Assembly: GCF_003334385.1 (NCBI RefSeq)
Contig: NZ_QOWN01000071.1
Strand: one strand, 5' to 3'
Length of the DNA: 8,756 nucleotides
DNA from: Escherichia coli
Lineage (GTDB): Bacteria > Pseudomonadota > Gammaproteobacteria > Enterobacterales > Enterobacteriaceae
Part shown: positions 1-8,756 of the stretch, one piece after another
Layout: the number at the start of each line of letters is the position of its first letter
How positions within the stretch are numbered: the first letter of the stretch is position 1
Position numbers and translations under genes: made by a program
Notes under the pieces: generated by a model
What the model was told of the DNA's origin: nothing
What the model saw: only the letters and a program-made list of their open reading frames with translations
Database searches by the model: none

Positions 1-99
1 AACGCGAGGCATCGTCTTAACGAGGCACCGAGGCGTCGCATTCTTCAGATGGTTCAACCCTTAAGTTAGCGCTTATGAGATTTTTCCCCGCCAGCGTCA

Positions 100-876
100 T
101 CATTTCCGGATTTTCGCCAGTGCATCCGCCATGCTGCGGATTTCATCCCGTGCCTCCAGAACAACCTCCCGCAGAATATCCCGGTCAAACCAGCGACGGG
201 ACGGTTCATCCGGTATACGCAGCACATCACAGACCAGACCACTGGCCAGGATATGCTCAATACAATCGCTGACCAGGTACATTTCCACCGACGAAAAACG
301 TGCTCCCCGGTTCACGATGGCATCGAGCACCACGGGCAGATTTTCGTCATCTTCATCAAGCCAGCAGGGGTAATCGCTTTCCTTCACAACCAGACGAAAG
401 CGGCGCGTCTGGCGGGTCAGCAACGTCTGACCGGTGGTGGTCAACGCCGCACGGATACGCCGCGCATCTTCTGCCACCCGGCAACTGACACTGCATACTG
501 CATCGCGCACCGCATCAAAAACCGCCCTGATTTCTTCCTCCGTCAGCCATTCACCGGCATACGGGAAAGACACCTGCGTTCCGTCTGCCGGAAGTACCGG
601 CAGCGACTGCCACTGACTGCCGGACAGTACAACTTCCGCCCCGGTTCCGGTCAGTTTCTGAATGGCGGAGGCCAGGTGCGGCGGCAGCACGCCATCGTGG
701 CGGTTAACGAGTAACGTCGCCAGCCGGGGCGCATCCAGCAGAACATAAATGCTGATCCAGCCCGGATACTTCGGGTTACGCTGGTCAACATCCGTCTCTT
801 CCGGCCAGCCCTGCGCCAGCAGCAGGTTGCGGGCGTGACGACAAATCAGTGCGTTCAGCGTTGTGTTTTCGTTCAT
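100..876 (-). CDS. Hypothetical protein (258 aa), last gene of the methyltransferase-led operon
   Basis: Long ORF on the minus strand. The reverse complement of 877-895 gives ttcaGGGAGAacgattaat immediately before the ATG, a Shine-Dalgarno-like GGGAGA. It follows the three upstream minus-strand genes with short gaps. I do not recognise a family; function unknown. Confidence 0.7.
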
Positions 877-921
877 GATTAATCGTTCTCCCTGAATCGC
901 CGCCCGGAGGCGGCGATAACA

Positions 922-1356
922 TCAGTCGTTTTCGTGTCTGTTGTTTTTCAGCAGGGTGCGGGCCTGATTAATCACCGCCTGACGGCGGGTGACGCATTCC
1001 GGGACGGCGAGGCCATAATCCCGGGCGGCCCATTCACGTTTCCACAATGCCTGTTCAGCGGTCTGAATCAGGGACGTCAGCAGTTCAGCAGGGACGGTCA
1101 CCTGGCGGTTTTCTCTCACGTTATTGATGATCTCCATCGCCACGCCGGAAGAAATACCGGATTCAGTCCGCTGGTCTTCCGGGATGTCCTCCAGGCGCGC
1201 CAGGACGGTTCTGATTTCATGATCGGACAGAGAAATATCCATTCCGTCAGCGAGGGCCTGAATCTCTTCCGGGGACCAGATAACCAGCATCAGCGGCGTG
1301 TCTCCCGGATACTTTGCTGCCAGCGCCCGGCATAGCGTTTCGCATGTTCCGTACAT
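922..1356 (-). CDS. Hypothetical protein (144 aa), third gene of the methyltransferase-led operon
   Basis: ORF with a strong RBS: the reverse complement upstream of the ATG reads gattgAGAAGGAGAcgaga-ATG. It sits 13 bp downstream of the preceding minus-strand gene. No family recognised from the sequence alone. Confidence 0.7.
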   Translation of the reverse strand: MYGTCETLCRALAAKYPGDTPLMLVIWSPEEIQALADGMDISLSDHEIRTVLARLEDIPEDQRTESGISSGVAMEIINNVRENRQVTVPAELLTSLIQTAEQALWKREWAARDYGLAVPECVTRRQAVINQARTLLKNNRHEND

Positions 1357-1369
1357 TCTCGTCTCCTTC

Positions 1370-1591
1370 TCAATCTTTGAAGCAGGAATCCAGTTCCAGA
1401 ATTTCGGTATACGCCTCCATGAACAGGCGATTGGCGCGATACAGCGTCTGGCGTGTCAGGCGTTCAACAAGCACATCGGAATCAAAGCGACAGCGATGCT
1501 CCATATCGTTCAGCCTGGCCCGAAGGTCACACATGGTGTTGGCCACCTCCGCCACGTCGGCGCGAAGTTTTTCGTGTCCGGCATAGTTCAT
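1370..1591 (-). CDS. Hypothetical small protein (73 aa), translationally coupled to the methyltransferase gene
   Basis: Its ATG directly abuts the methyltransferase stop (minus strand reads ...TAA-ATG). GGAGG lies 8 nt upstream of the ATG, inside the methyltransferase 3' end. Small size makes the call less certain. Confidence 0.6.
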   Translation of the reverse strand: MNYAGHEKLRADVAEVANTMCDLRARLNDMEHRCRFDSDVLVERLTRQTLYRANRLFMEAYTEILELDSCFKD

Positions 1592-2275
1592 TTACGCAGC
1601 CTCCGGTTCAAACCAGTTATCATTCGCGGCCCCCTGCTGCATGGCCCGTTGCACGGCGGCCAGTCGTTGCTGTCCGGCACGGTGATACTGTTCAAGCAGC
1701 TCGATACCGATATACCGGCGTCCGGACTGAAGGGCGGCCACGCAGGTTGAGCCGCTGCCTGCAAACGGGTCCAGCACAATCGCGTTCGGATGTGTGAAGC
1801 TCTCAATCAGCGGTTGCAGGCTGGTAACGGGCTTTTCCGTCGGGTGATGACGATTGCCTGAATATTTCCAGCCCAGCACATCCGGCAGAGGGTTACGGGG
1901 CCGGGCCGGACTGCCCTTTGCCAGGATGTAAGCGCATTCGTGGCGGTACGCGACATACGCAGATTTGGATGTGTAGTTTTTGGTGAACACGAGGTGCCCT
2001 GCCACGCTGAATCCGGCGCGTTTCCAGGCCGCCATAAAGCGGTCAATACGGTGCCAGCCGTAGAAGCTGACCATCAGCGCGTCTTTTTTGAGTACGCGGT
2101 ACATTTCATTACAGGCCGGTTGCAGCCATTCATCGGTTTTATCGCCAGCGATGGTGCGCCCGAAACGGTCACGAAAACCGACGAGGTACGGCGGGTCAGT
2201 CAGTATGAAATCAATGGCGTTATCAGGAATACGGGCCATAACATCGATGCAGTTACCGAGGACAAAACGGGACAT
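1592..2275 (-). CDS. Orphan DNA methyltransferase, N6-adenine/N4-cytosine beta-class (227 aa)
   Basis: The translation contains DPPY near the N-terminus (ILTDPPYLVGF) followed later by an FxGxG AdoMet-binding motif (VLDPFAGSGST) and HPTEKP. This motif order is typical of beta-class amino-methyltransferases. RBS AGGAG lies upstream of the ATG (reverse complement of 2276-2290 is agaAGGAGcgttgtt). No restriction endonuclease partner is adjacent. Confidence 0.85.
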   Translation of the reverse strand: MSRFVLGNCIDVMARIPDNAIDFILTDPPYLVGFRDRFGRTIAGDKTDEWLQPACNEMYRVLKKDALMVSFYGWHRIDRFMAAWKRAGFSVAGHLVFTKNYTSKSAYVAYRHECAYILAKGSPARPRNPLPDVLGWKYSGNRHHPTEKPVTSLQPLIESFTHPNAIVLDPFAGSGSTCVAALQSGRRYIGIELLEQYHRAGQQRLAAVQRAMQQGAANDNWFEPEAA

Positions 2276-2620
2276 AACAACGCTCCTTCTCTTACAGAGG
2301 ACACCAGGAGGGCACCCCTGTGGTGCCCGTTCCCCGCTGCCTGTGGGCTGTTCACCGCGTCCGGTAACGGGTCAGGCCGACCGTGGAATACCGCAGCAGC
2401 CGTCGTCTTTCTGACGGCAAGGCTATGCCGCGAAAGCGGCTTGAAGGGCGTTCATCAGAAAAGGGCTCCTGGCTGGCGTACACTGGCACCGACGCCAGCC
2501 AGGAGCGGTAAAAGCGCCCGTCCCGTGCCTGATCGGACGCGGGACACTGACCACAGGCAGCGTTCCTGCCGCGCCGCGTCAGCCGGCGCAGTAAAAAGAG
2601 GAGCCCGGCGACATCCTTTG
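2276..2620 (-). promoter_or_regulatory. GC-rich, hairpin-dense non-coding leader upstream of the methyltransferase operon (possible promoter or single-strand promoter-like element)
   Basis: No credible ORF with an RBS. Inverted repeats read directly: perfect 15-bp stem gctcctggctggcgt (2465-2479) with acgccagccaggagc (2492-2506) and a 12-nt loop; GGGCACC (2310-2316) with GGTGCCC (2322-2328); GCCGTC (2399-2404) with GACGGC (2413-2418); gtcccg (2520-2525) with cgggac (2540-2545). The region lies between the parR terminator and the methyltransferase start. Confidence 0.45.
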
Positions 2621-2654
2621 TCGGAAAAGAAAAAAGGACGCAACAGCGTCCTTT
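2621..2654 (-). terminator. Rho-independent terminator downstream of the parR-like gene
   Basis: Stem AGGACGC (2635-2641) and GCGTCCT (2646-2652) with loop AACA. On the minus strand the hairpin is followed by a U-run (plus-strand A-run ggaaaagaaaaaa at 2621-2634). It sits 16 bp after the parR-like stop. Confidence 0.65.
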
Positions 2655-2669
2655 AACAGAGTTCAGTTC

Positions 2670-3098
2670 TTATTCATCATCCGGAAACAAGTTCTTAATG
2701 TTGTTTCTTGTTTCCAGGAGATTCTGATCGACTGGAGCAGATATTTCTTGCGTAGCAGAATCAACCGCAGGCAGGATCGTTTTTGCATTATTACCGGCAG
2801 ACTGCAGAAATGCCTCCAGCAAACGAACAACTTCACCATTTTCCTGTTGTGGTAGCGTACTACTGATAATTCGTTGAATATCCCGCATAGACGTGCTGTC
2901 TGTCAGGAATTCAGCTATCAGAAACGGCAATCGTTCATCCTGTTTCATCAATGCAGCACCACACAACATCATGGCCCGCATTGCCCGACCACGTTCTTTC
3001 TGAGGCAATTTTTCAAGAAACCTGTCAGCCACCCGATCAGCTGCATTTCGTTCCGGATAAATATAAAAAGAGCACTTACGATTATCAGCCATACTCAT
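2670..3098 (-). CDS. parR: ParR/StbB-like centromere-binding partition protein (142 aa)
   Basis: Small gene immediately downstream of the parM-like gene and overlapping it by 4 nt (ATGA). By recollection it resembles plasmid R1 ParR in its central part (...LPQKERGRAMRAMMLCGAALMKQDERLPFLIAEFLT...). An alternative start two codons in (3092) has better SD spacing. Confidence 0.65.
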   Translation of the reverse strand: MSMADNRKCSFYIYPERNAADRVADRFLEKLPQKERGRAMRAMMLCGAALMKQDERLPFLIAEFLTDSTSMRDIQRIISSTLPQQENGEVVRLLEAFLQSAGNNAKTILPAVDSATQEISAPVDQNLLETRNNIKNLFPDDE

Positions 3099-4075
3099 CC
3101 CTTCATTGCCATCATTCCCAACACCAGATCGAACTGAGGATTGTCACTGACAAAGAAACGGTTATCACCCACTCCTGTCGCTTTTTTTACTGCCCCAGCC
3201 ACAAGGCTGGCACCACCGCCAACAACCATAACATGAGTAAAACCAGCAAAGCGTCCTACTGAATCCGCCACACGATGCTGCAGTTTTTTTTCCCGGTCAC
3301 GTAATACTGTCAGGATCTGCTCACGCTGTTCTGCATTCGGGATATAACGAGTCAGGAATTCATTGTCATCCCGGCCCTGGATTAGACGATCTGCAAAATA
3401 AGAACTGGTTCGTGTACTCACATTCACATCCATCGCATGCTTAACTGCTTCAGTAATGATGGAAACGCCTGTCTTGGGGTCACAATAAGTTTTTGTGAAA
3501 CCGGACATTTTGCTGCGGACATGTGCAATATCAAGGGTCGTTCCACCGATATCAACGATCAACAGCGACTCCAGATCATTCAGATCTTTCAGCACGTCAA
3601 AACCGGCAGGCACGGACTCAGGCAAGACACTGACTTTACGAATGGTAAAGTTTTCACGCCCCTGAACTGTTACAGCTCGTCTGACATTATTTTTCTTACG
3701 TTCGATATTAGCCAGATTTGGCTGATCGTTCTCATCCAGATACTCACCTAAAGGTAAAGTCACAACAATATCAACAGGTTGCGGAGCAATACCTGACTGC
3801 ATCAACGCATGATGAATAGCAACCACATTAACGTCGCTGTACTGATAACGCGTTTCTGTGGTGCGCACTGCATCCGGACTCAATTGATCAAAGCTGTATT
3901 TCTCTCCATCAATCTCATAGTTTGCGGAAGCGGGTATAGTGGCATCAGTCAGTCCCTGCAGCGTCATAGACCATTCCGGTTTAAAACTATTCGGGCTAAT
4001 TAACGTTTTCACTGCACCGTCTTCAACCCAAGCCAGTTTGATGTTGGTAGAACCGTCATCTACAAAGATACGCAT
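3095..4075 (-). CDS. parM: ParM/StbA-like actin-family plasmid segregation ATPase
   Basis: The N-terminus MRIFVDDGSTNIKL, the phosphate-2-like LIVDIGGTTLDIAHV, and HVMVVGGGASLV match recalled ParM/StbA (R1/R100) motifs. I place the start at the ATG at 4075-4073, preceded by GTGAGGTTCTGG. The ORF track extends to a GTG at 4087 that overlaps that SD. Confidence 0.85.
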   Translation of the reverse strand: MRIFVDDGSTNIKLAWVEDGAVKTLISPNSFKPEWSMTLQGLTDATIPASANYEIDGEKYSFDQLSPDAVRTTETRYQYSDVNVVAIHHALMQSGIAPQPVDIVVTLPLGEYLDENDQPNLANIERKKNNVRRAVTVQGRENFTIRKVSVLPESVPAGFDVLKDLNDLESLLIVDIGGTTLDIAHVRSKMSGFTKTYCDPKTGVSIITEAVKHAMDVNVSTRTSSYFADRLIQGRDDNEFLTRYIPNAEQREQILTVLRDREKKLQHRVADSVGRFAGFTHVMVVGGGASLVAGAVKKATGVGDNRFFVSDNPQFDLVLGMMAMKG

Positions 4076-4087
4076 CCAGAACCTCAC

Positions 4088-4300
4088 AGAATAAAATGGA
4101 TTTTTTTAGAAAAATATGGTGTCGAAAAAGATTATCACCTAGAAACACGCATCAGTAAAGACCTGATATCGGCCACAAACAGAAAGATAAAGAAAAATAA
4201 AGACAAAAACCGACTCAAATAGCACACCAGGGAACAAACAAGAACAATAAAAGACAAATGCAGTTAAAATTCAGAAAAAAACTGAACAGGTGAACGGAGA
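4088..4300 (-). promoter_or_regulatory. AT-rich upstream region of the parMR-like operon (putative promoter and parC-like centromere)
   Basis: About 210 bp of A-rich non-coding sequence directly upstream of parM, where parC sits in known parMRC loci. Loose recurrences of aaagac/aaagat motifs are visible, but I could not delineate clear iterons by eye. Confidence 0.3.
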
Positions 4301-4664
4301 AGGGGGCTCATCCAGCACATGCTGTATTTGGGTTCAGTTTGGAATTCGGAAAATAAACCACGTTAAGACTATTTTTTAGCCAAATGGCTTTCAGGAATCG
4401 CCAGAATGGCGGGACAACAGTGGTTTTGGTGTCCGAAATCGTACAATTCTGTACATCTACGCAAGGAAATGTACGGAAGTAAGCCAAATGGTTATCGGAC
4501 GGTAGGAACATTTCGTACAGCCTTTACGTTCAGTGAGTGAGCTGGTCTGGATGTAACCACTCGTTCAACTCAATTCTCTTAGCGTGGGAAAATTTCCTTT
4601 CTCCAAGCGGCTCCCAAACCGTAATTCCCGGCAAGCCCGGTAAGCTGGGCAGCAAGCTAGGCAC

Positions 4665-4964
4665 TCAAAGAATGAACCGGGGATTCTGACGCTGACCTAC
4701 AACCGCCAGGATATTGACACGACGGGCCTTATCATTCACTTCATAAAGTACATGCTGCCCAAGTAAGCTAATACGACGAACCCCTTCGCCATAGCGTTCA
4801 TCAGTTTCATACAGCCGAGGGTAATCAGCCAGGCGATCGGTTGCAGTGATCAGACGCTCTGTCACGTTCCTTGCATCCCAAAGAGATGCATTCTCAGCCA
4901 GATATTCAAACAGCGCAGTTATATCTTCAATTGCACCTGGTCGCCATTCTATTTCATAACTCAT
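4665..4964 (-). CDS. RelE/ParE-superfamily toxin of a type II toxin-antitoxin module (99 aa)
   Basis: About 100-aa protein whose start overlaps the upstream small gene by 11 nt. The sequence pattern (YEIEWRPGAIEDI..., ...RRVNILAVVGQRQN) is consistent with RelE/ParE-fold toxins as I recall them. Confidence 0.7.
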   Translation of the reverse strand: MSYEIEWRPGAIEDITALFEYLAENASLWDARNVTERLITATDRLADYPRLYETDERYGEGVRRISLLGQHVLYEVNDKARRVNILAVVGQRQNPRFIL

Positions 4965-5217
4965 TGCGCAGTTCCTGATAACGTCCCTGTAGTTGCTGGC
5001 GCAGTTGCGCGGAACTCATTCCCGGCCGCTTATCGGCGCGAGCAGCGGCAACTTTCGCTCGTATCTGTTCGTCGTATTCTGCCCGTGCCAGTTCTTCATT
5101 AGCAAGGCGTTGCAATAGTGCAGACTTGTCTGTACTGCCTTCTGGAAAAATACGAGGCAGGCTTTCGGCCAGCTCGCGCAGGAAATTGGCGTTTTCGTAA
5201 TGTGTGGTGCTATTCAT
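4954..5217 (-). CDS. Putative antitoxin of the RelE/ParE-type module (87 aa from the second ATG)
   Basis: Small ORF upstream of and overlapping the toxin gene (antitoxin-first order). I prefer the second ATG at 5217 because the minus strand reads ATGAAGGGGGAGTCAACT-ATG, which places a GGGGGAG SD about 7 nt before it. The ORF track starts at 5235. Antitoxin family uncertain. Confidence 0.6.
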   Translation of the reverse strand: MNSTTHYENANFLRELAESLPRIFPEGSTDKSALLQRLANEELARAEYDEQIRAKVAAARADKRPGMSSAQLRQQLQGRYQELRNEL

Positions 5218-5291
5218 AGTTGACTCCCCCTTCATTTAATAAAGAGCAATTACAGGTTTTTTGATGTCGTACGCATGGGTATAACGAGTCA

Positions 5292-5305
5292 GAATATCGA
5301 TATTC
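5292..5305. promoter_or_regulatory. Perfect 14-bp palindrome GAATATCGATATTC upstream of the toxin-antitoxin operon (candidate operator)
   Basis: Read directly; self-complementary. It lies about 75-88 bp upstream of the preferred antitoxin ATG. Type II antitoxins commonly autoregulate through palindromic operators. Confidence 0.3.
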
Positions 5306-5619
5306 ACTCCGATGATATTGTTTCACAGGCAGGCGATAACCGGAAAATAATGCTCATTTACCTGGCAATCTGCGTGTTGTCAGGTTTTATACAGAGTATA
5401 TAACCTTTCAGACACAGCCACCAACATATGCCGCGTCAGCGGCATGGAAGGCGGTACTCTGTGGTTACATGCGGCACAAGTGTAAAACCGCCGAAGCCCG
5501 GCGTAAGCCGGTACTGATTGACAGGTTTCACCTTACCCACCCCCGGCCCTGCCAGACAGTGGGGGCTTAAAGGGGTAGTGTGACATCCTGACAGCAACTG
5601 AAAGCAAAATGTAAACACA

Positions 5620-5812
5620 ATATTAATTTTTGTAAAAAAGCAATAACTATACAAACATAACTAACTGATATTACTATTAAATATTTAACAGGCGTACAAA
5701 TTTAGTTCAAATTATCATTGCAAAATATAGTTAATTACAGCAAGTAACTAGTGTTGGCCAACATACTATTCAGATGTCATAAGCATTAATTTCCCTTAAA
5801 AAAGGAGTCCTT
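5620..5812 (+). promoter_or_regulatory. AT-rich promoter and leader region of the microcin B17 operon
   Basis: Strongly AT-rich tract directly upstream of mcbA. Candidate -10-like hexamers are TATAGT (5726-5731) and TCATAA (5777-5782), the latter with TTGGCC (5754-5759) 17 bp upstream. mcbA RBS AGGAG is at 5803-5807, 5 nt before the ATG. Exact promoter not mapped. Confidence 0.4.
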
Positions 5813-6010
5813 ATGGAATTAAAAGCGAGTGAATTTGGTGTAGTTTTGTCCGTTGATGCTCTTAAATTATCACGCCAGTCTCCATTAGGTGTTGGCATTG
5901 GTGGTGGTGGCGGCGGTAGCTGCGGTGGTCAAGGTGGCGGTTGTGGTGGTTGCAGCAACGGTTGTAGTGGTGGAAACGGTGGCAGCGGCGGAAGTGGTTC
6001 ACATATCTGA
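5813..6010 (+). CDS. mcbA: Microcin B17 precursor peptide McbA, variant with a shortened poly-Gly linker (65 aa)
   Basis: The translation MELKASEFGVVLSVDALKLSRQSPLG-VGIGGGGGG-SCGGQGGGCGGCSNGCSGGNGGSGGSGSHI matches the microcin B17 leader and core as I recall them, including the Gly-Ser-Cys and Gly-Cys-Ser heterocyclisation sites. Only 6 Gly codons (5900-5917) follow VGI. Confidence 0.95.
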   Translation: MELKASEFGVVLSVDALKLSRQSPLGVGIGGGGGGSCGGQGGGCGGCSNGCSGGNGGSGGSGSHI

Positions 6011-6027
6011 TACGTTGAATTAACCGT

Positions 6028-6050
6028 TCAGGGAGCATGGTGCTCCCTGA
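6028..6050 (+). promoter_or_regulatory. Perfect stem-loop between mcbA and mcbB (10-bp stem, 3-nt loop)
   Basis: tCAGGGAGCA (6028-6037), loop TGG, TGCTCCCTGa (6041-6050), verified base by base. It starts 18 nt after the mcbA stop and encloses the first in-frame ATG of the mcbB ORF (6037). It is not followed by a U-tract. Confidence 0.5.
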
Positions 6051-6924
6051 TATTAAAAAAGGAAAAGATATGATCAATATTCTGCCATTTGAGATAATTT
6101 CCAGAAATACAAAGACCCTGCTTATTACCTACATTTCTTCAGTAGACATTACACATGAGGGAATGAAAAAAGTACTCGAAAGCCTACGATCCAAACAGGG
6201 TATTATTTCTGAATACCTCCTTGATAAACTACTGGACGAATCGCTTATTGATAAAGACAAGGGCAAAGAGTTTCTTATTACCACAGGCGTGATAAATAAA
6301 ACGAAAACATCACCTCTCTGGGTAAACTCAGTCATAATAAGCGATGTTCCACATCTTTTCAGTAATGCCCGGGAACAATGGAAATCTGATGGTGTTTTTG
6401 TTTCTCATATCATTGATATAAAAGATAATAATATTAATGTGAGCGATTCAACACTAATCTGGTTACATCTCGAAAACTATCATTCAGACATTGTAAAAAG
6501 AATCTATTCAAAATTTGAAAGTAACCCTGGTGTTGCCTTCATCCAAAGCTACTACCTAAAGGAGTCATTCAGGATAGATGGAGTATATTCACCTGATCTT
6601 GGTACTCCCTGCCATTTTTGTCATATAGAGAGATGGCTGAGCAGGGAAGAAAAAAGCTTCAGACGTAACGAAATGTCCTGGGCAAATTTACTTCAGTTAC
6701 TGAAAAAATACTAAATGACACTACCAGCATTGGCTTTAGGCGAGTCAGAAAGAGGATTCAGCTATCATTTAATAAAACGGCGACTTCAGGAGTTGACAGG
6801 TACTTCACTGGTTAAAAGTCATGTCGATAGCTTTATGTCATCTGTTAGCGCTGATTTAATCACCTGTATTTTATGTAAAGAGCCGGTAATTCACTGGCAG
6901 GCTTGCAGCTGTCTGGAGAGATAA
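6037..6924 (+). pseudogene. mcbB: mcbB (microcin B17 synthetase zinc-binding scaffold subunit) interrupted by an in-frame TAA at 6712-6714
   Basis: The 225-aa ORF 6037-6714 and the 69-aa ORF 6715-6924 are in the same frame, separated only by TAA. Together they give 225+1+69 = 295 codons, which is the McbB length I recall. CHFCH lies in the N-terminal part and CILC...CSC in the C-terminal part. An RBS-supported alternative start is the ATG at 6070 (AGGA at 6060-6063). Confidence 0.8.
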
Positions 6925-6925
6925 C

Positions 6926-7744
6926 ATGTCAAAACACGAACTCTCTTTAGTGGAAGTAACGCATTACACAGATCCTGAAGTTCTGGCCATTGTTAAAGAT
7001 TTTCATGTCAGAGGTAACTTTGCTTCCCTCCCCGAATTTGCTGAACGAACTTTCGTGTCCGCGGTACCTCTTGCCCATCTGGAGAAATTTGAAAATAAAG
7101 AAGTTCTCTTCAGGCCAGGTTTCAGCTCCGTAATAAACATATCCTCATCACATAATTTTAGTCGTGAAAGGCTCCCATCAGGAATAAACTTTTGCGACAA
7201 AAATAAACTTTCCATTCGTACTATTGAAAAGTTATTAGTCAATGCATTCAGCTCACCTGATCCTAGCTCTGTAAGAAGACCTTATCCTTCTGGGGGGGCA
7301 TTGTGCCCGATTGAAGTTTTTTTATGCAGATTATCTGAAAATACAGAAAACTGGCAGTCAGGAACTAATGTTTATCACTACCTGCCGCTAAGTCAGGCAC
7401 TGGAACCTGTTGCTACATGTAATACTCAGTCACTCTACCGAAGCCTGTCCGGTGGGGATTCGGAACGTCTTGGTAAACCCCATTTTGCTCTCGTCTATTG
7501 CATTATTTTTGAAAAAGCTTTGTTCAAATATCGCTACAGAGGATACCGGATGGCCTTAATGGAAACAGGTTCGATGTATCAGAACGCAGTATTGGTTGCA
7601 GATCAAATAGGACTGAAAAACCGGGTATGGGCGGGATATACCGATTCATACGTAGCAAAAACAATGAATCTGGATCAGAGGACTGTAGCGCCACTGATCG
7701 TTCAGTTTTTTGGAGATGTAAACGATGATAAATGTCTACAGTAA
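6926..7744 (+). CDS. mcbC: McbC, FMN-dependent dehydrogenase of microcin B17 synthetase (272 aa)
   Basis: 272-aa ORF, matching the McbC length I recall. It starts 1 nt after the mcbB stop, with GGAGAG 7 nt upstream, and contains a nitroreductase-like RPYPSGGALCPIE region. The gene order follows the known mcb operon. Confidence 0.93.
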   Translation: MSKHELSLVEVTHYTDPEVLAIVKDFHVRGNFASLPEFAERTFVSAVPLAHLEKFENKEVLFRPGFSSVINISSSHNFSRERLPSGINFCDKNKLSIRTIEKLLVNAFSSPDPSSVRRPYPSGGALCPIEVFLCRLSENTENWQSGTNVYHYLPLSQALEPVATCNTQSLYRSLSGGDSERLGKPHFALVYCIIFEKALFKYRYRGYRMALMETGSMYQNAVLVADQIGLKNRVWAGYTDSYVAKTMNLDQRTVAPLIVQFFGDVNDDKCLQ

Positions 7745-8618
7745 CCTTATGTCCGCATGGCCGGCCACAATGGCCATGAGTCCAAAACTGAACAGAAATA
7801 TGCCAACGTTTTCTCAGATATGGGACTATGAGCGTATTACACCAGCCAGCGCGGCCGGTGAAACTCTGAAGTCAATTCAGGGGGCAATAGGTGAATATTT
7901 TGAACGCCGTCATTTTTTTAATGAGATAGTCACCGGTGGTCAGAAAACATTATATGAGATGATGCCTCCATCTGCTGCAAAGGCTTTTACCGAAGCATTT
8001 TTTCAGATCTCATCACTGACCCGCGATGAAATCATAACCCATAAATTTAAAACGGTCAGAGCCTTTAATCTGTTTAGCCTTGAACAACAAGAAATACCTG
8101 CAGTCATAATTGCACTCGACAATATAACCGCTGCAGATGATCTGAAATTTTATCCTGACAGAGATACATGCGGATGTAGCTTTCATGGTAGTTTGAACGA
8201 TGCCATAGAAGGTTCCTTGTGTGAATTTATGGAGAGACAGTCCCTCCTTCTTTACTGGTTACAGGGAAAAGCCAATACTGAAATATCCAGTGAAATAGTA
8301 ACAGGCATAAATCATATTGATGAGATTTTACTGGCTCTCAGGTCAGAAGGAGATATCAGGATTTTCGATATCACCCTGCCCGGAGCTCCTGGACACGCAG
8401 TACTAACCCTGTATGGCACAAAAAACAAAATCAGTCGAATAAAATACAGTACCGGATTATCCTATGCTAATAGTCTGAAAAAAGCACTTTGTAAATCCGT
8501 AGTGGAATTGTGGCAATCGTATATATGCCTGCACAACTTTCTTATTGGCGGTTATACTGATGATGACATTATTGATAGTTACCAGCGTCACTTTATGTCA
8601 TGCAACAAGTACGGGTAA
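7725..8618 (+). pseudogene. mcbD: mcbD (YcaO-type cyclodehydratase of microcin B17 synthetase) truncated by an IS1-family insertion
   Basis: The ORF starts MINVYSNLMSAW... and overlaps the mcbC end by 20 nt. It runs 296 mcbD codons and then ends in G-stop, where the codons are supplied by the IS1 terminal repeat (GG-TAA-TG). McbD is about 396 aa by recollection, so roughly the C-terminal 100 residues are missing. Confidence 0.88.
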
Positions 8619-8636
8619 TGACTCCAACTTACTGAT
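8614..8636. repeat. IS1 terminal inverted repeat (23 bp)
   Basis: GGTAATGACTCCAACTTACTGAT matches the IS1 terminal inverted repeat consensus. It directly abuts mcbD coding sequence. Confidence 0.75.
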
Positions 8637-8756
8637 AGTGTTTTATGTTCAGATAATGCCCGATGACCTTGTCATGCAACTCCACCGATTTTGAGAACGA
8701 CAGTAACTTCCGTCCCAGCCTTGCCAGATGTTGTCTCAGATTCAGATTATGTCGCT
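8629..8756 (-). CDS. insB: IS1 transposase InsB, C-terminal fragment (5' end outside the window)
   Basis: The minus-strand translation ...[41 protein letters not shown]-stop matches the IS1 InsB C-terminus from memory. The stop TAA is the complement of 8629-8631. Confidence 0.75.

Follow-up and report, generated by a model that had tools for sequence, protein, structure and literature searches.

A very probably non-functional, decaying remnant of the microcin B17 operon ending at an IS1 element in an Escherichia coli plasmid lineage

The DNA analyzed here (the window) is a stretch of 8,756 nt that makes up the entire NCBI contig QOWN01000071.1 (GCA_003334385.1) of Escherichia coli. With high confidence, its positions 5813 to 8756 represent a non-functional, decaying remnant of a plasmid-borne microcin B17 operon (mcbA, mcbB*, mcbC, and mcbD′), from which the 3′ end of mcbD and mcbEFG appear to have been removed via IS1. 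Microcin B17 is a thiazole/oxazole-modified microcin; in its operon, mcbE and mcbF serve export, and mcbG serves gyrase protection.

The locus shares the gene order mcbA-B-C-D with the mcbABCDEFG operon found on pMccB17 and on IncFII plasmids related to it and shows 99.3 to 99.7% nucleotide identity to intact operons over positions 5751 to 8613. All four of its genes match the expected NCBIfam models, and its McbA is identical to the "microcin B17 family TOMM" protein WP_021545189.1. It differs from a pMccB17-type operon in carrying Q226* in mcbB and Y127C in McbC, in lacking McbD residues 297 to 396, and in that mcbEFG are missing downstream in sister contigs. The flanks differ as well, with a ParE-type toxin-antitoxin (TA) module and a different parMR upstream and IS1 and an IncI-type backbone downstream. 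The features of the region are as follows.

5498..5812, plus strand: mcb upstream (promoter) region, where homology with intact mcb plasmids starts; 97.5% identity to positions 5798 to 6201 of the intact plasmid L001.
5813..6010, plus strand: mcbA, microcin B17 precursor, 65 aa, frame intact; NCBIfam NF041037 at 123.3 bits (cutoff, 70).
5900..5917, plus strand: polyglycine linker of McbA, six Gly codons (GGT GGT GGT GGC GGC GGT) where ten are canonical.
6037..6714, plus strand: mcbB 5′ fragment, 225 aa (214 aa with the RefSeq start codon, position 6070), ending at a premature TAA (6712 to 6714).
6715..6924, plus strand: mcbB 3′ fragment, a 69-aa open reading frame (ORF) from the native Met227 codon directly after the stop; TIGR04424 positions 222 to 286 of 286.
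6926..7744, plus strand: mcbC, FMN dehydrogenase, full length (272 aa), with Y127C (codon 7304 to 7306), G114S, and A145S.
7725..8613, plus strand: mcbD′, YcaO cyclodehydratase, codons 1 to 296 of 396; the frame enters IS1 and stops at 8616 to 8618.
8614..8756, minus strand (transposase): terminal 143 bp of IS1, with the contig end inside the element; 97% identity to the annotated IS1 of the plasmids L002 and L003.

A preliminary description of this DNA had listed a contracted linker in mcbA, a nonsense codon in mcbB, and an IS1 truncation of mcbD, and all three features are present as it stated. The stop codon in mcbB arises from a CAA-to-TAA change at position 6712 (Q226*), and codon 226 is CAA in every intact operon compared (4 operons in one comparison and 12 in another). 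Both ORFs match one single McbB profile, TIGR04424, of which the 5′ fragment covers positions 1 to 215 of 286. Thus, instead of the full-length 295-aa McbB scaffold with its four-cysteine zinc site, the window encodes a protein that is split by the TAA at 6712. The zinc ligands of McbB are Cys192, Cys195, Cys290, and Cys292 (PMC6395948); as checked by cysteine position, the 5′ fragment retains the first two and is devoid of Cys290 and Cys292. The 3′ fragment carries in addition N265S, a substitution also seen in intact McbB on 76 contigs.

McbC was described earlier as looking intact, which holds only for the reading frame: the protein scores 91.4 bits on TIGR03605 (cutoff, 78.4), and Lys201-Tyr202 is present. 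Nevertheless, Y127C falls in the invariant motif R-x-Y-P-S-G-G-A-L-Y-P, at a tyrosine that is invariant in 108 of 108 homologues, down to ~31% identity, whereas positions 114 and 145 are variable among these homologues. Furthermore, operons that are intact can also have G114S and A145S, and Y127C is confined to the decayed lineage. From Y127C we infer an effect on activity, and mcbC is probably not functionally intact.

Homology to mcbD ends after position 8613, that is, after codon 296 plus one base of 396, and the terminal repeat of IS1 starts at 8614 (GGTAATGACTCCAACTTA...), the element being recognized as IS1 by this terminal inverted repeat and by sequence identity. A full-length McbD (396 aa, with the C-terminal proline motif) is therefore absent; the truncated product is 297 aa long, is found in exactly this form on 95 contigs, and matches TIGR03604 over positions 11 to 234 of 377 with 47.5 bits, against a cutoff of 219. 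With the last 100 residues, the protein also loses its C-terminal prolines, which reach into the active site of the YcaO enzyme, and removal of Pro396 alone cripples processing by McbD (PMC6395948).

In the sister locus L009, the IS1 copy is present at its full 768 bp, with the DDE_Tnp_IS1 ORFs on the minus strand. A simple IS1 insertion is expected to generate a target-site duplication of roughly 9 bp. The L009 element is flanked by ...ACAAGTACG (ending AAGTACG) on the left and by GGGAAAAGG... on the right, with no target duplication. Its two sides in sister contigs belong to different plasmid backbones, and the right flank matches IncI-gamma/K and I1 backbone at 97% identity from the very edge of IS1 onward. 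The missing duplication, together with the different backbones on each side, indicated that IS1 marks a deletion or recombination junction rather than a simple insertion.

The intact operons examined all have mcbEFG immediately downstream of mcbD. The window itself ends 143 bp into IS1, and the loss of the mcbD 3′ end and of mcbEFG, which is not seen in the source assembly, is one that we infer from sister contigs carrying this allele. The five sister loci that continue past IS1 (L007 to L011) show IncI-type backbone beyond the element. The eight sister loci L007 to L014 were searched by tblastn for at most 10 kb to either side of mcbD′, within the limits of each contig, and neither the McbD C terminus nor McbE, McbF, or McbG was found. 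It seems that the operon lost its immunity genes together with its terminal part.

These data bear on the earlier suggestion that the plasmid could confer immunity without production. In this scenario, the strain would be an immune non-producer (a "cheater"), in which the production genes are dead and a functional mcbEFG set resides elsewhere on the plasmid or on the chromosome, giving resistance to microcin B17 at no cost of production. Such a state exists in relatives, since the complete plasmids L002 and L003 keep annotated full-length mcbE, mcbF, and mcbG downstream, and, if it applied here, the host would be a natural immune non-producer whose dead genes record the order of the change from producer to cheater. 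However, the mcbEFG stretch that should directly follow mcbD is missing, IS1 adjoins unrelated IncI-type backbone, and the eight sister loci gave no McbE, McbF, or McbG signal within the 10 kb searched on each side. A second mcbEFG copy elsewhere would then be needed, and none was seen. A look-up of the canonical McbG listed 13,483 blocks, of which ten places were shown; the 210-kb sister contig is not among these ten, an outcome that speaks neither for nor against mcbG on that contig. Immunity without production is unsupported at this locus, and we regard an immune non-producer as improbable.

The preferred reading, a dead and decaying remnant, is further illuminated by the sister lineage. 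Loci L007 to L014 show 99.7 to 99.9% identity to positions 77 to 8756 of the window, and 7 of the 8 carry two further changes, a 4-bp deletion at 6634 to 6637 that shifts the mcbB frame and G53D in McbA (position 5970); the remaining locus, L008, lacks both and instead has a 9-bp duplication in mcbC. The 214-aa McbB is found on 15 contigs and the further-frameshifted 188-aa form on 59. The further lesions in the sister contigs indicate that decay is continuing, and in this respect the proposal that the production genes are dead and decaying is borne out, given the nonsense codon, the lost McbD terminus, and these extra lesions. Changes in the decayed lineage comprise 3 disruptive or missense versus 2 synonymous ones, compared to 5 versus 10 in intact operons, counts that are too small to demonstrate relaxed selection in statistical terms. 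McbB N265S and McbC A145S, in some cases joined by G114S, are already present in the closest intact relatives (L015 and L021 to L024), so that these three substitutions are ordinary polymorphisms. The damage specific to the lineage consists only of Q226*, Y127C, and the IS1 junction.

Q226* cuts mcbB and removes two of the four structural zinc-site cysteines, and Y127C alters the invariant McbC motif. We propose that IS1, either by mediating a deletion or through recombination between two of its copies, took away the mcbD 3′ end along with mcbE, mcbF, and mcbG. The remnant would afterwards have gathered more lesions under relaxed selection, and it probably persists by hitch-hiking beside the partition genes parMR and a ParE-type toxin-antitoxin module that is still intact. 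The predicted phenotype is that no microcin B17 would be made and that the locus would be expected to provide no plasmid-encoded immunity.

Residual function of the operon was considered as well. Ribosomes could terminate and reinitiate at the TAA-ATG (6712 to 6717) and yield a two-piece McbB, and the remaining proteins could partly modify McbA or serve another role; the native Met227 ATG directly after the stop, the complete 69-aa ORF that follows, and the intact frames of mcbA and mcbC in the window are all compatible with this. Yet no Shine-Dalgarno sequence precedes the ATG, McbC bears Y127C at an invariant site, and McbD, the cyclodehydratase that makes every heterocycle, is without its 100 C-terminal residues, when losing Pro396 alone is already severely damaging (PMC6395948). 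Moreover, most lineage members are further frameshifted in mcbB and mutated in mcbA, which is the opposite of conservation. Residual function is thus very unlikely.

Least probable of all is that errors of sequencing or assembly in a short-read draft produced the lesions, with the true operon intact: although the window, as a draft contig, is short and breaks off within a repeat, the Gly tract consists of a simple repeat, and some short metagenome or Logan contigs of the region are clearly mosaic, this idea is already effectively refuted, because the stop codon, Y127C, the 6-Gly tract, and the IS1 junction recur in every sister assembly compared, including four isolate assemblies (L009, L010, L013, and L032), in one of which the contig concerned is 210 kb long, and the linker alleles all differ by whole codons. 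Exact matches to the products of the window were obtained on 101 contigs for McbC and on 95 for McbD′, and the presence of both exact proteins on ~100 public contigs likewise shows that the lesions are not artefacts. In addition, the 2.9-kb mcb stretch is 100% identical to the window in three further assemblies (L028, L031, and L032). The truncated allele was absent from complete E. coli genomes and PLSDB plasmids, where the best match (99.6%) came from an intact operon, and a literature search on the truncated allele found no report of it.

The linker of McbA must be withdrawn from the list of lesions. The precursor has the expected 26-aa leader and a Gly/Ser/Cys-rich core, matches NF041037 over profile positions 1 to 69, and its gene shows zero base differences from mcbA of L001 and L006; the identical 65-aa McbA thus occurs in complete plasmids with intact mcbABCDEFG. 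Linker lengths, which were taken from match lengths and alignments, are 6 Gly in L001 and L006 (both intact), 7 in L005, L018, and L020, 9 in L015 and L021, and 10 in the 69-aa McbA of L004, the last being also the number in McbA of pMccB17 (PMC10912980, Table 1). Alleles with 6, 7, 9, and 10 Gly recur across different operon backgrounds. McbA devoid of the polyglycine stretch was processed by the E. coli synthetase with 85% of activity kept (PMC6722960). On the other hand, on McbA1-46 in vitro, a 7-Gly linker supported ~10% of the wild-type rate and a 5-Gly linker gave values close to background (PMC6722960), from which it follows that the 6-Gly precursor may be a poorer substrate, even if not a dead one. 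The 6-Gly linker is best read as a natural length variant of a slippage-prone GGY tract, one that was already there and lies outside the decay. As an instance of natural polyglycine-length variation in McbA it holds nothing new, the allele merely sitting in a dead operon; the length ranges from 6 to 10 Gly among intact operons and should not be taken as damage. An exact look-up of McbA with 6, 7, 8, 9, or 10 Gly found none of them indexed in a 15-billion-protein collection.

Inactivation of the production genes by insertion sequences is recurrent. Other complete E. coli plasmids with disrupted mcb operons include NZ_OZ369165 and OZ369361 (IS1 between mcbA and mcbB), CP088751 (IS1 in mcbB), NZ_CP120551 (IS3 family), and NZ_CP183136 and CP183140 (IS903B); at least 6 such records were counted across two collections, versus 101 records with full coverage among complete E. 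coli genomes. The two examined in detail, L002 (IS1 between mcbA and mcbB) and L003 (IS1 inside mcbB), are simple interruptions, in which the whole operon, including mcbEFG, is kept on both sides of the element. In contrast, the IS1 of the window marks a deletion/recombination junction, and point lesions have accumulated too.

Thus, the locus is a remnant of an already known operon that has undergone ordinary gene decay, and it raises no new question. The plasmid lineage with this dead allele is widespread in E. coli and provides a natural, if small, record of lesions that followed one another once function had been lost. A gene-presence screen would call this contig microcin B17 positive, since mcbA, mcbB, mcbC, and mcbD all match their models; nonetheless, the locus is predicted to be toxin-null and, here at least, to be without immunity genes, and ~100 public contigs share the dead allele. 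NCBIfam matches of the neighbouring genes (fimbrial usher, ParA, and TA) did not narrow the plasmid type further.

Five short metagenome/Logan contigs (L017, L019, L030, L034, and L035) have some of the lesions but not others and mix decayed with canonical alleles. Four of them, with L017 as the exception, end right at the IS1 junction, and two have a 4-bp deletion in conflict with the stop codon (four-gamete test); all five were set aside as probable chimeras of mixed samples and not used as intermediates in the order of lesions. L001 has, past its ParE-type TA module, a second copy of a short repeat, and the first ~55 bp (5498 to 5552) of the mcb upstream region match this copy as well.

The window carries a degraded form of the known mcb operon; the locus is what is left of a known bacteriocin operon after ordinary pseudogenisation. 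Over positions 5751-8613, identity to intact microcin B17 operons of IncF plasmids is 99.3-99.7%, and all four encoded proteins match the NCBIfam models expected for them:

5813-8756: mcbA, mcbB, mcbC and the 5' three quarters of mcbD, then the end of an IS1
5900-5917: glycine linker of mcbA, six Gly codons
McbA: NF041037, 123 bits
McbB: TIGR04424 in two pieces, model positions 1-215 and 222-286
McbC: TIGR03605, 91 bits
McbD: SagD/YcaO model, positions 11-234 of 377 only

The window spans the whole of contig QOWN01000071.1 (8,756 bp, assembly GCA_003334385.1), and L027, taken from that record, agrees with window positions 2070-8756 at every base. The window ends within the IS1 because the short-read assembly broke at this repeat. 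All three features named as lesions in the preliminary description (a contracted McbA linker, a nonsense codon in mcbB and an IS1 truncation of mcbD) are present in the sequence. Window position 6712, in mcbB, is T (TAA), where all intact operons compared have C (CAA, Gln226). Beyond 8613, at codon 296 of 396, homology to mcbD gives way to IS1 (from 8614), into which the frame continues as far as a stop at 8616-8618. Artefacts were ruled out, since the exact 272-aa McbC, the 297-aa truncated McbD and the 214-aa McbB fragment occur on 101, 95 and 15 contigs, respectively, and eight longer sister loci of the same allele (L007 to L014), one of them from a 210-kb contig (assembly GCA_900447915.1), are 99.7-99.9% identical to window positions 77-8756. 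The observation was thus confirmed, and its interpretation proved partly right.

Two of the three features are disabling. The structural zinc of McbB is held by Cys192, Cys195, Cys290 and Cys292 (PMC6395948), and the stop at codon 226 disables the protein because it parts the first pair of ligands from the second. The YcaO cyclodehydratase McbD yields an only partly modified product when its last residue, Pro396, is missing (PMC6395948); since 100 residues are lost in the window, this truncation is disabling as well.

The linker contraction, in contrast, could not be upheld as a lesion. Canonical McbA (69 aa) has ten linker glycines (PMC10912980), and the McbA of the window is identical to that of two intact operons, on the complete plasmids NZ_CP049848 (L001) and NZ_JBXRYY010000004 (L006). 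Intact operons carry six (L001, L006), seven (L005, L018, L020), nine (L015, L021) or ten (L004) glycines, and equal lengths recur on differing backgrounds, as defined by McbB residue 265 and McbC residues 114 and 145; therefore, the GGY tract changes length repeatedly. Judged from match lengths, complete E. coli genomes hold at least three six-Gly operons, one seven-Gly, six nine-Gly and 55 ten-Gly operons. The review PMC6722960 gives findings for both sides: the E. coli synthetase still processes McbA lacking the polyglycine, with 85% of activity kept, but McbA1-46 with seven glycines was processed in vitro at about 10% of the wild-type rate and that with five at near background. A six-Gly McbA may be a weaker substrate. 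Nevertheless, the six-Gly allele is a standing polymorphism and no evidence of decay, and linker length should not be used as a marker of damage.

mcbC had been described as looking intact, which holds only for its reading frame. Compared with canonical McbC, the protein carries G114S, Y127C and A145S. Positions 114 and 145 vary among homologues, whereas Tyr127, lying in an R-x-Y-P-S-G-G-A-L-Y-P motif after the FMN-phosphate-binding arginine, is shared by all 108 homologues compared, some of them as distant as about 31% identity. On this conservation, Y127C would be expected to abolish activity. The other substitutions are ordinary variation: McbB N265S occurs in full-length protein on 76 contigs, McbC A145S alone on 61 and G114S with A145S on 5, and all are found in intact seven-gene operons (drawn from L015 and L021 to L024). 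Specific to the decayed lineage are only Q226*, Y127C, synonymous changes at 6744 and 8318, the IS1 junction and, on this background, the six-Gly tract.

In the sister contigs the IS1 is complete (768 bp), with ...ACAAGTACG as its left flank, GGGAAAAGG... as its right flank and no target-site duplication. DNA that matches IncI-gamma/K and IncI1 backbone at 97% identity begins exactly at the far edge of the IS1 and carries a 102-aa gene, parA, the resD integrase and a colicin Ia immunity gene. A tblastn search of the eight sister loci with McbD, McbE, McbF and McbG returned McbD residues 1-296 alone, plus a spurious run into IS1. With no duplication, a foreign flank and no McbEFG match, the IS1 therefore marks a deletion or recombination junction. 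The 3' end of mcbD and mcbEFG would have been removed there, either by an adjacent deletion mediated by the IS1 or by recombination between two copies of it.

The suggestion that the plasmid might confer immunity without production, should the immunity genes persist elsewhere, finds no support at this locus. Better candidates for an immune non-producer are two IS1-interrupted plasmids, examined in detail, in which mcbC to mcbG are still annotated as full length and mcbEFG remain:

L002 (NZ_OZ369165), 6371-7068: IS1 interruption
L003 (CP088751), 997-1694: IS1 interruption

Complete plasmids repeatedly show mcb disrupted by insertion sequences, with IS1 between mcbA and mcbB in OZ369165 and OZ369361 and within mcbB in CP088751, an IS3-family element in CP120551 and IS903B in CP183136 and CP183140. 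The operon occurs in 110 of 5,426 complete E. coli genomes (about 2%), and the dead allele in 195 collection blocks versus 13,483 for canonical McbG. Our search of the literature turned up no account of this remnant. In practice, calling microcin B17 from the presence of its genes can give false positives.

Decay has continued in most members of the lineage. Seven of the eight sister loci (all but L008) carry a 4-bp deletion at 6634-6637 that frameshifts mcbB, its 188-aa product occurring on 59 contigs, and a G>A change at 5970 that replaces a core glycine of McbA with Asp (G53D); both are absent from the window. L008, L026 and L033 have 9 bp duplicated in frame within mcbC, at 7495. The window represents a rarer, less decayed sub-lineage. 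Relaxed selection on production, as proposed earlier, predicts such a pattern; disruptive or missense versus synonymous changes number 3 to 2 in the lineage and 5 to 10 among intact operons, counts too small for a test. N265S and A145S, then G114S, preceded inactivation; the six-Gly tract, Q226*, Y127C and the IS1 junction are grouped as a core set, followed by either the 4-bp deletion with G53D or the 9-bp duplication.

Five short metagenome/Logan contigs (L017, L019, L030, L034 and L035) mix decayed-lineage and canonical alleles; four of them stop exactly at the IS1 junction, the exception being L017. They are probably chimeric and were set aside as intermediates; they are either chimeras from samples holding both operons or natural recombinants of dead and intact ones.

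About 5 kb past the IS1, in L009 16124-16909, a colicin Ia-type immunity gene (115 aa) is intact, but the neighboring colicin gene, compared with that of pA117-CTX-M-8 (L025, IncI-gamma/K), is reduced to about 200 bp at its 3' end. The plasmid lineage therefore combines an orphan immunity (colicin) with orphan production remnants (microcin B17).

The remnant probably owes its persistence to the adjoining parMR partition genes and intact ParE-type toxin-antitoxin (TA) pair. parM/parR (window 2670-4087, minus strand) are of another type and in opposite orientation compared with those of canonical mcb plasmids (L001 3414-4729), with no nucleotide match to the latter or to parMR of L025; several backbones thus make up the plasmid as a mosaic. 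An element of about 55 bp, CCGGCGTAAGCCGGTACTGATTGACAGGTTTCACCTTACCCACCCCCGGCCCTGCCAGAC, lies just upstream of mcbA (window 5498-5552; L001 5798-5852). In canonical plasmids a second, directly oriented copy (L001 13358-13412) lies past the TA module downstream of mcbG, so the mcb-TA island is bracketed by the repeat; in the window, unlike these plasmids, the module lies upstream of mcbA, an arrangement that a circular permutation of the island through recombination at the repeat could have produced. At 16 sites, clustered in the toxin and antitoxin genes (4803-5104), L007 departs from both the window and every other sister locus, and elsewhere it is nearly identical; the cluster looks like a recombination patch.

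Window positions 1-76 are absent from all sister loci, whose alignment starts at base 77. Matches to this segment at 95-100% identity come from 899 plasmid records, R478 and many E. coli and Salmonella plasmids among them, and most often no feature is annotated there. The segment is probably one end of a repeated mobile element, in which case the assembly broke at a repeat at either end of the contig. Finally, a 5-bp insertion (CAGAC) after position 229, absent from the window, L008, L009, L010 and L014, is present in L007, L012 and L013, where it joins a 258-aa reading frame (100-876, minus strand) to its upstream neighbor, giving a 327-aa product.
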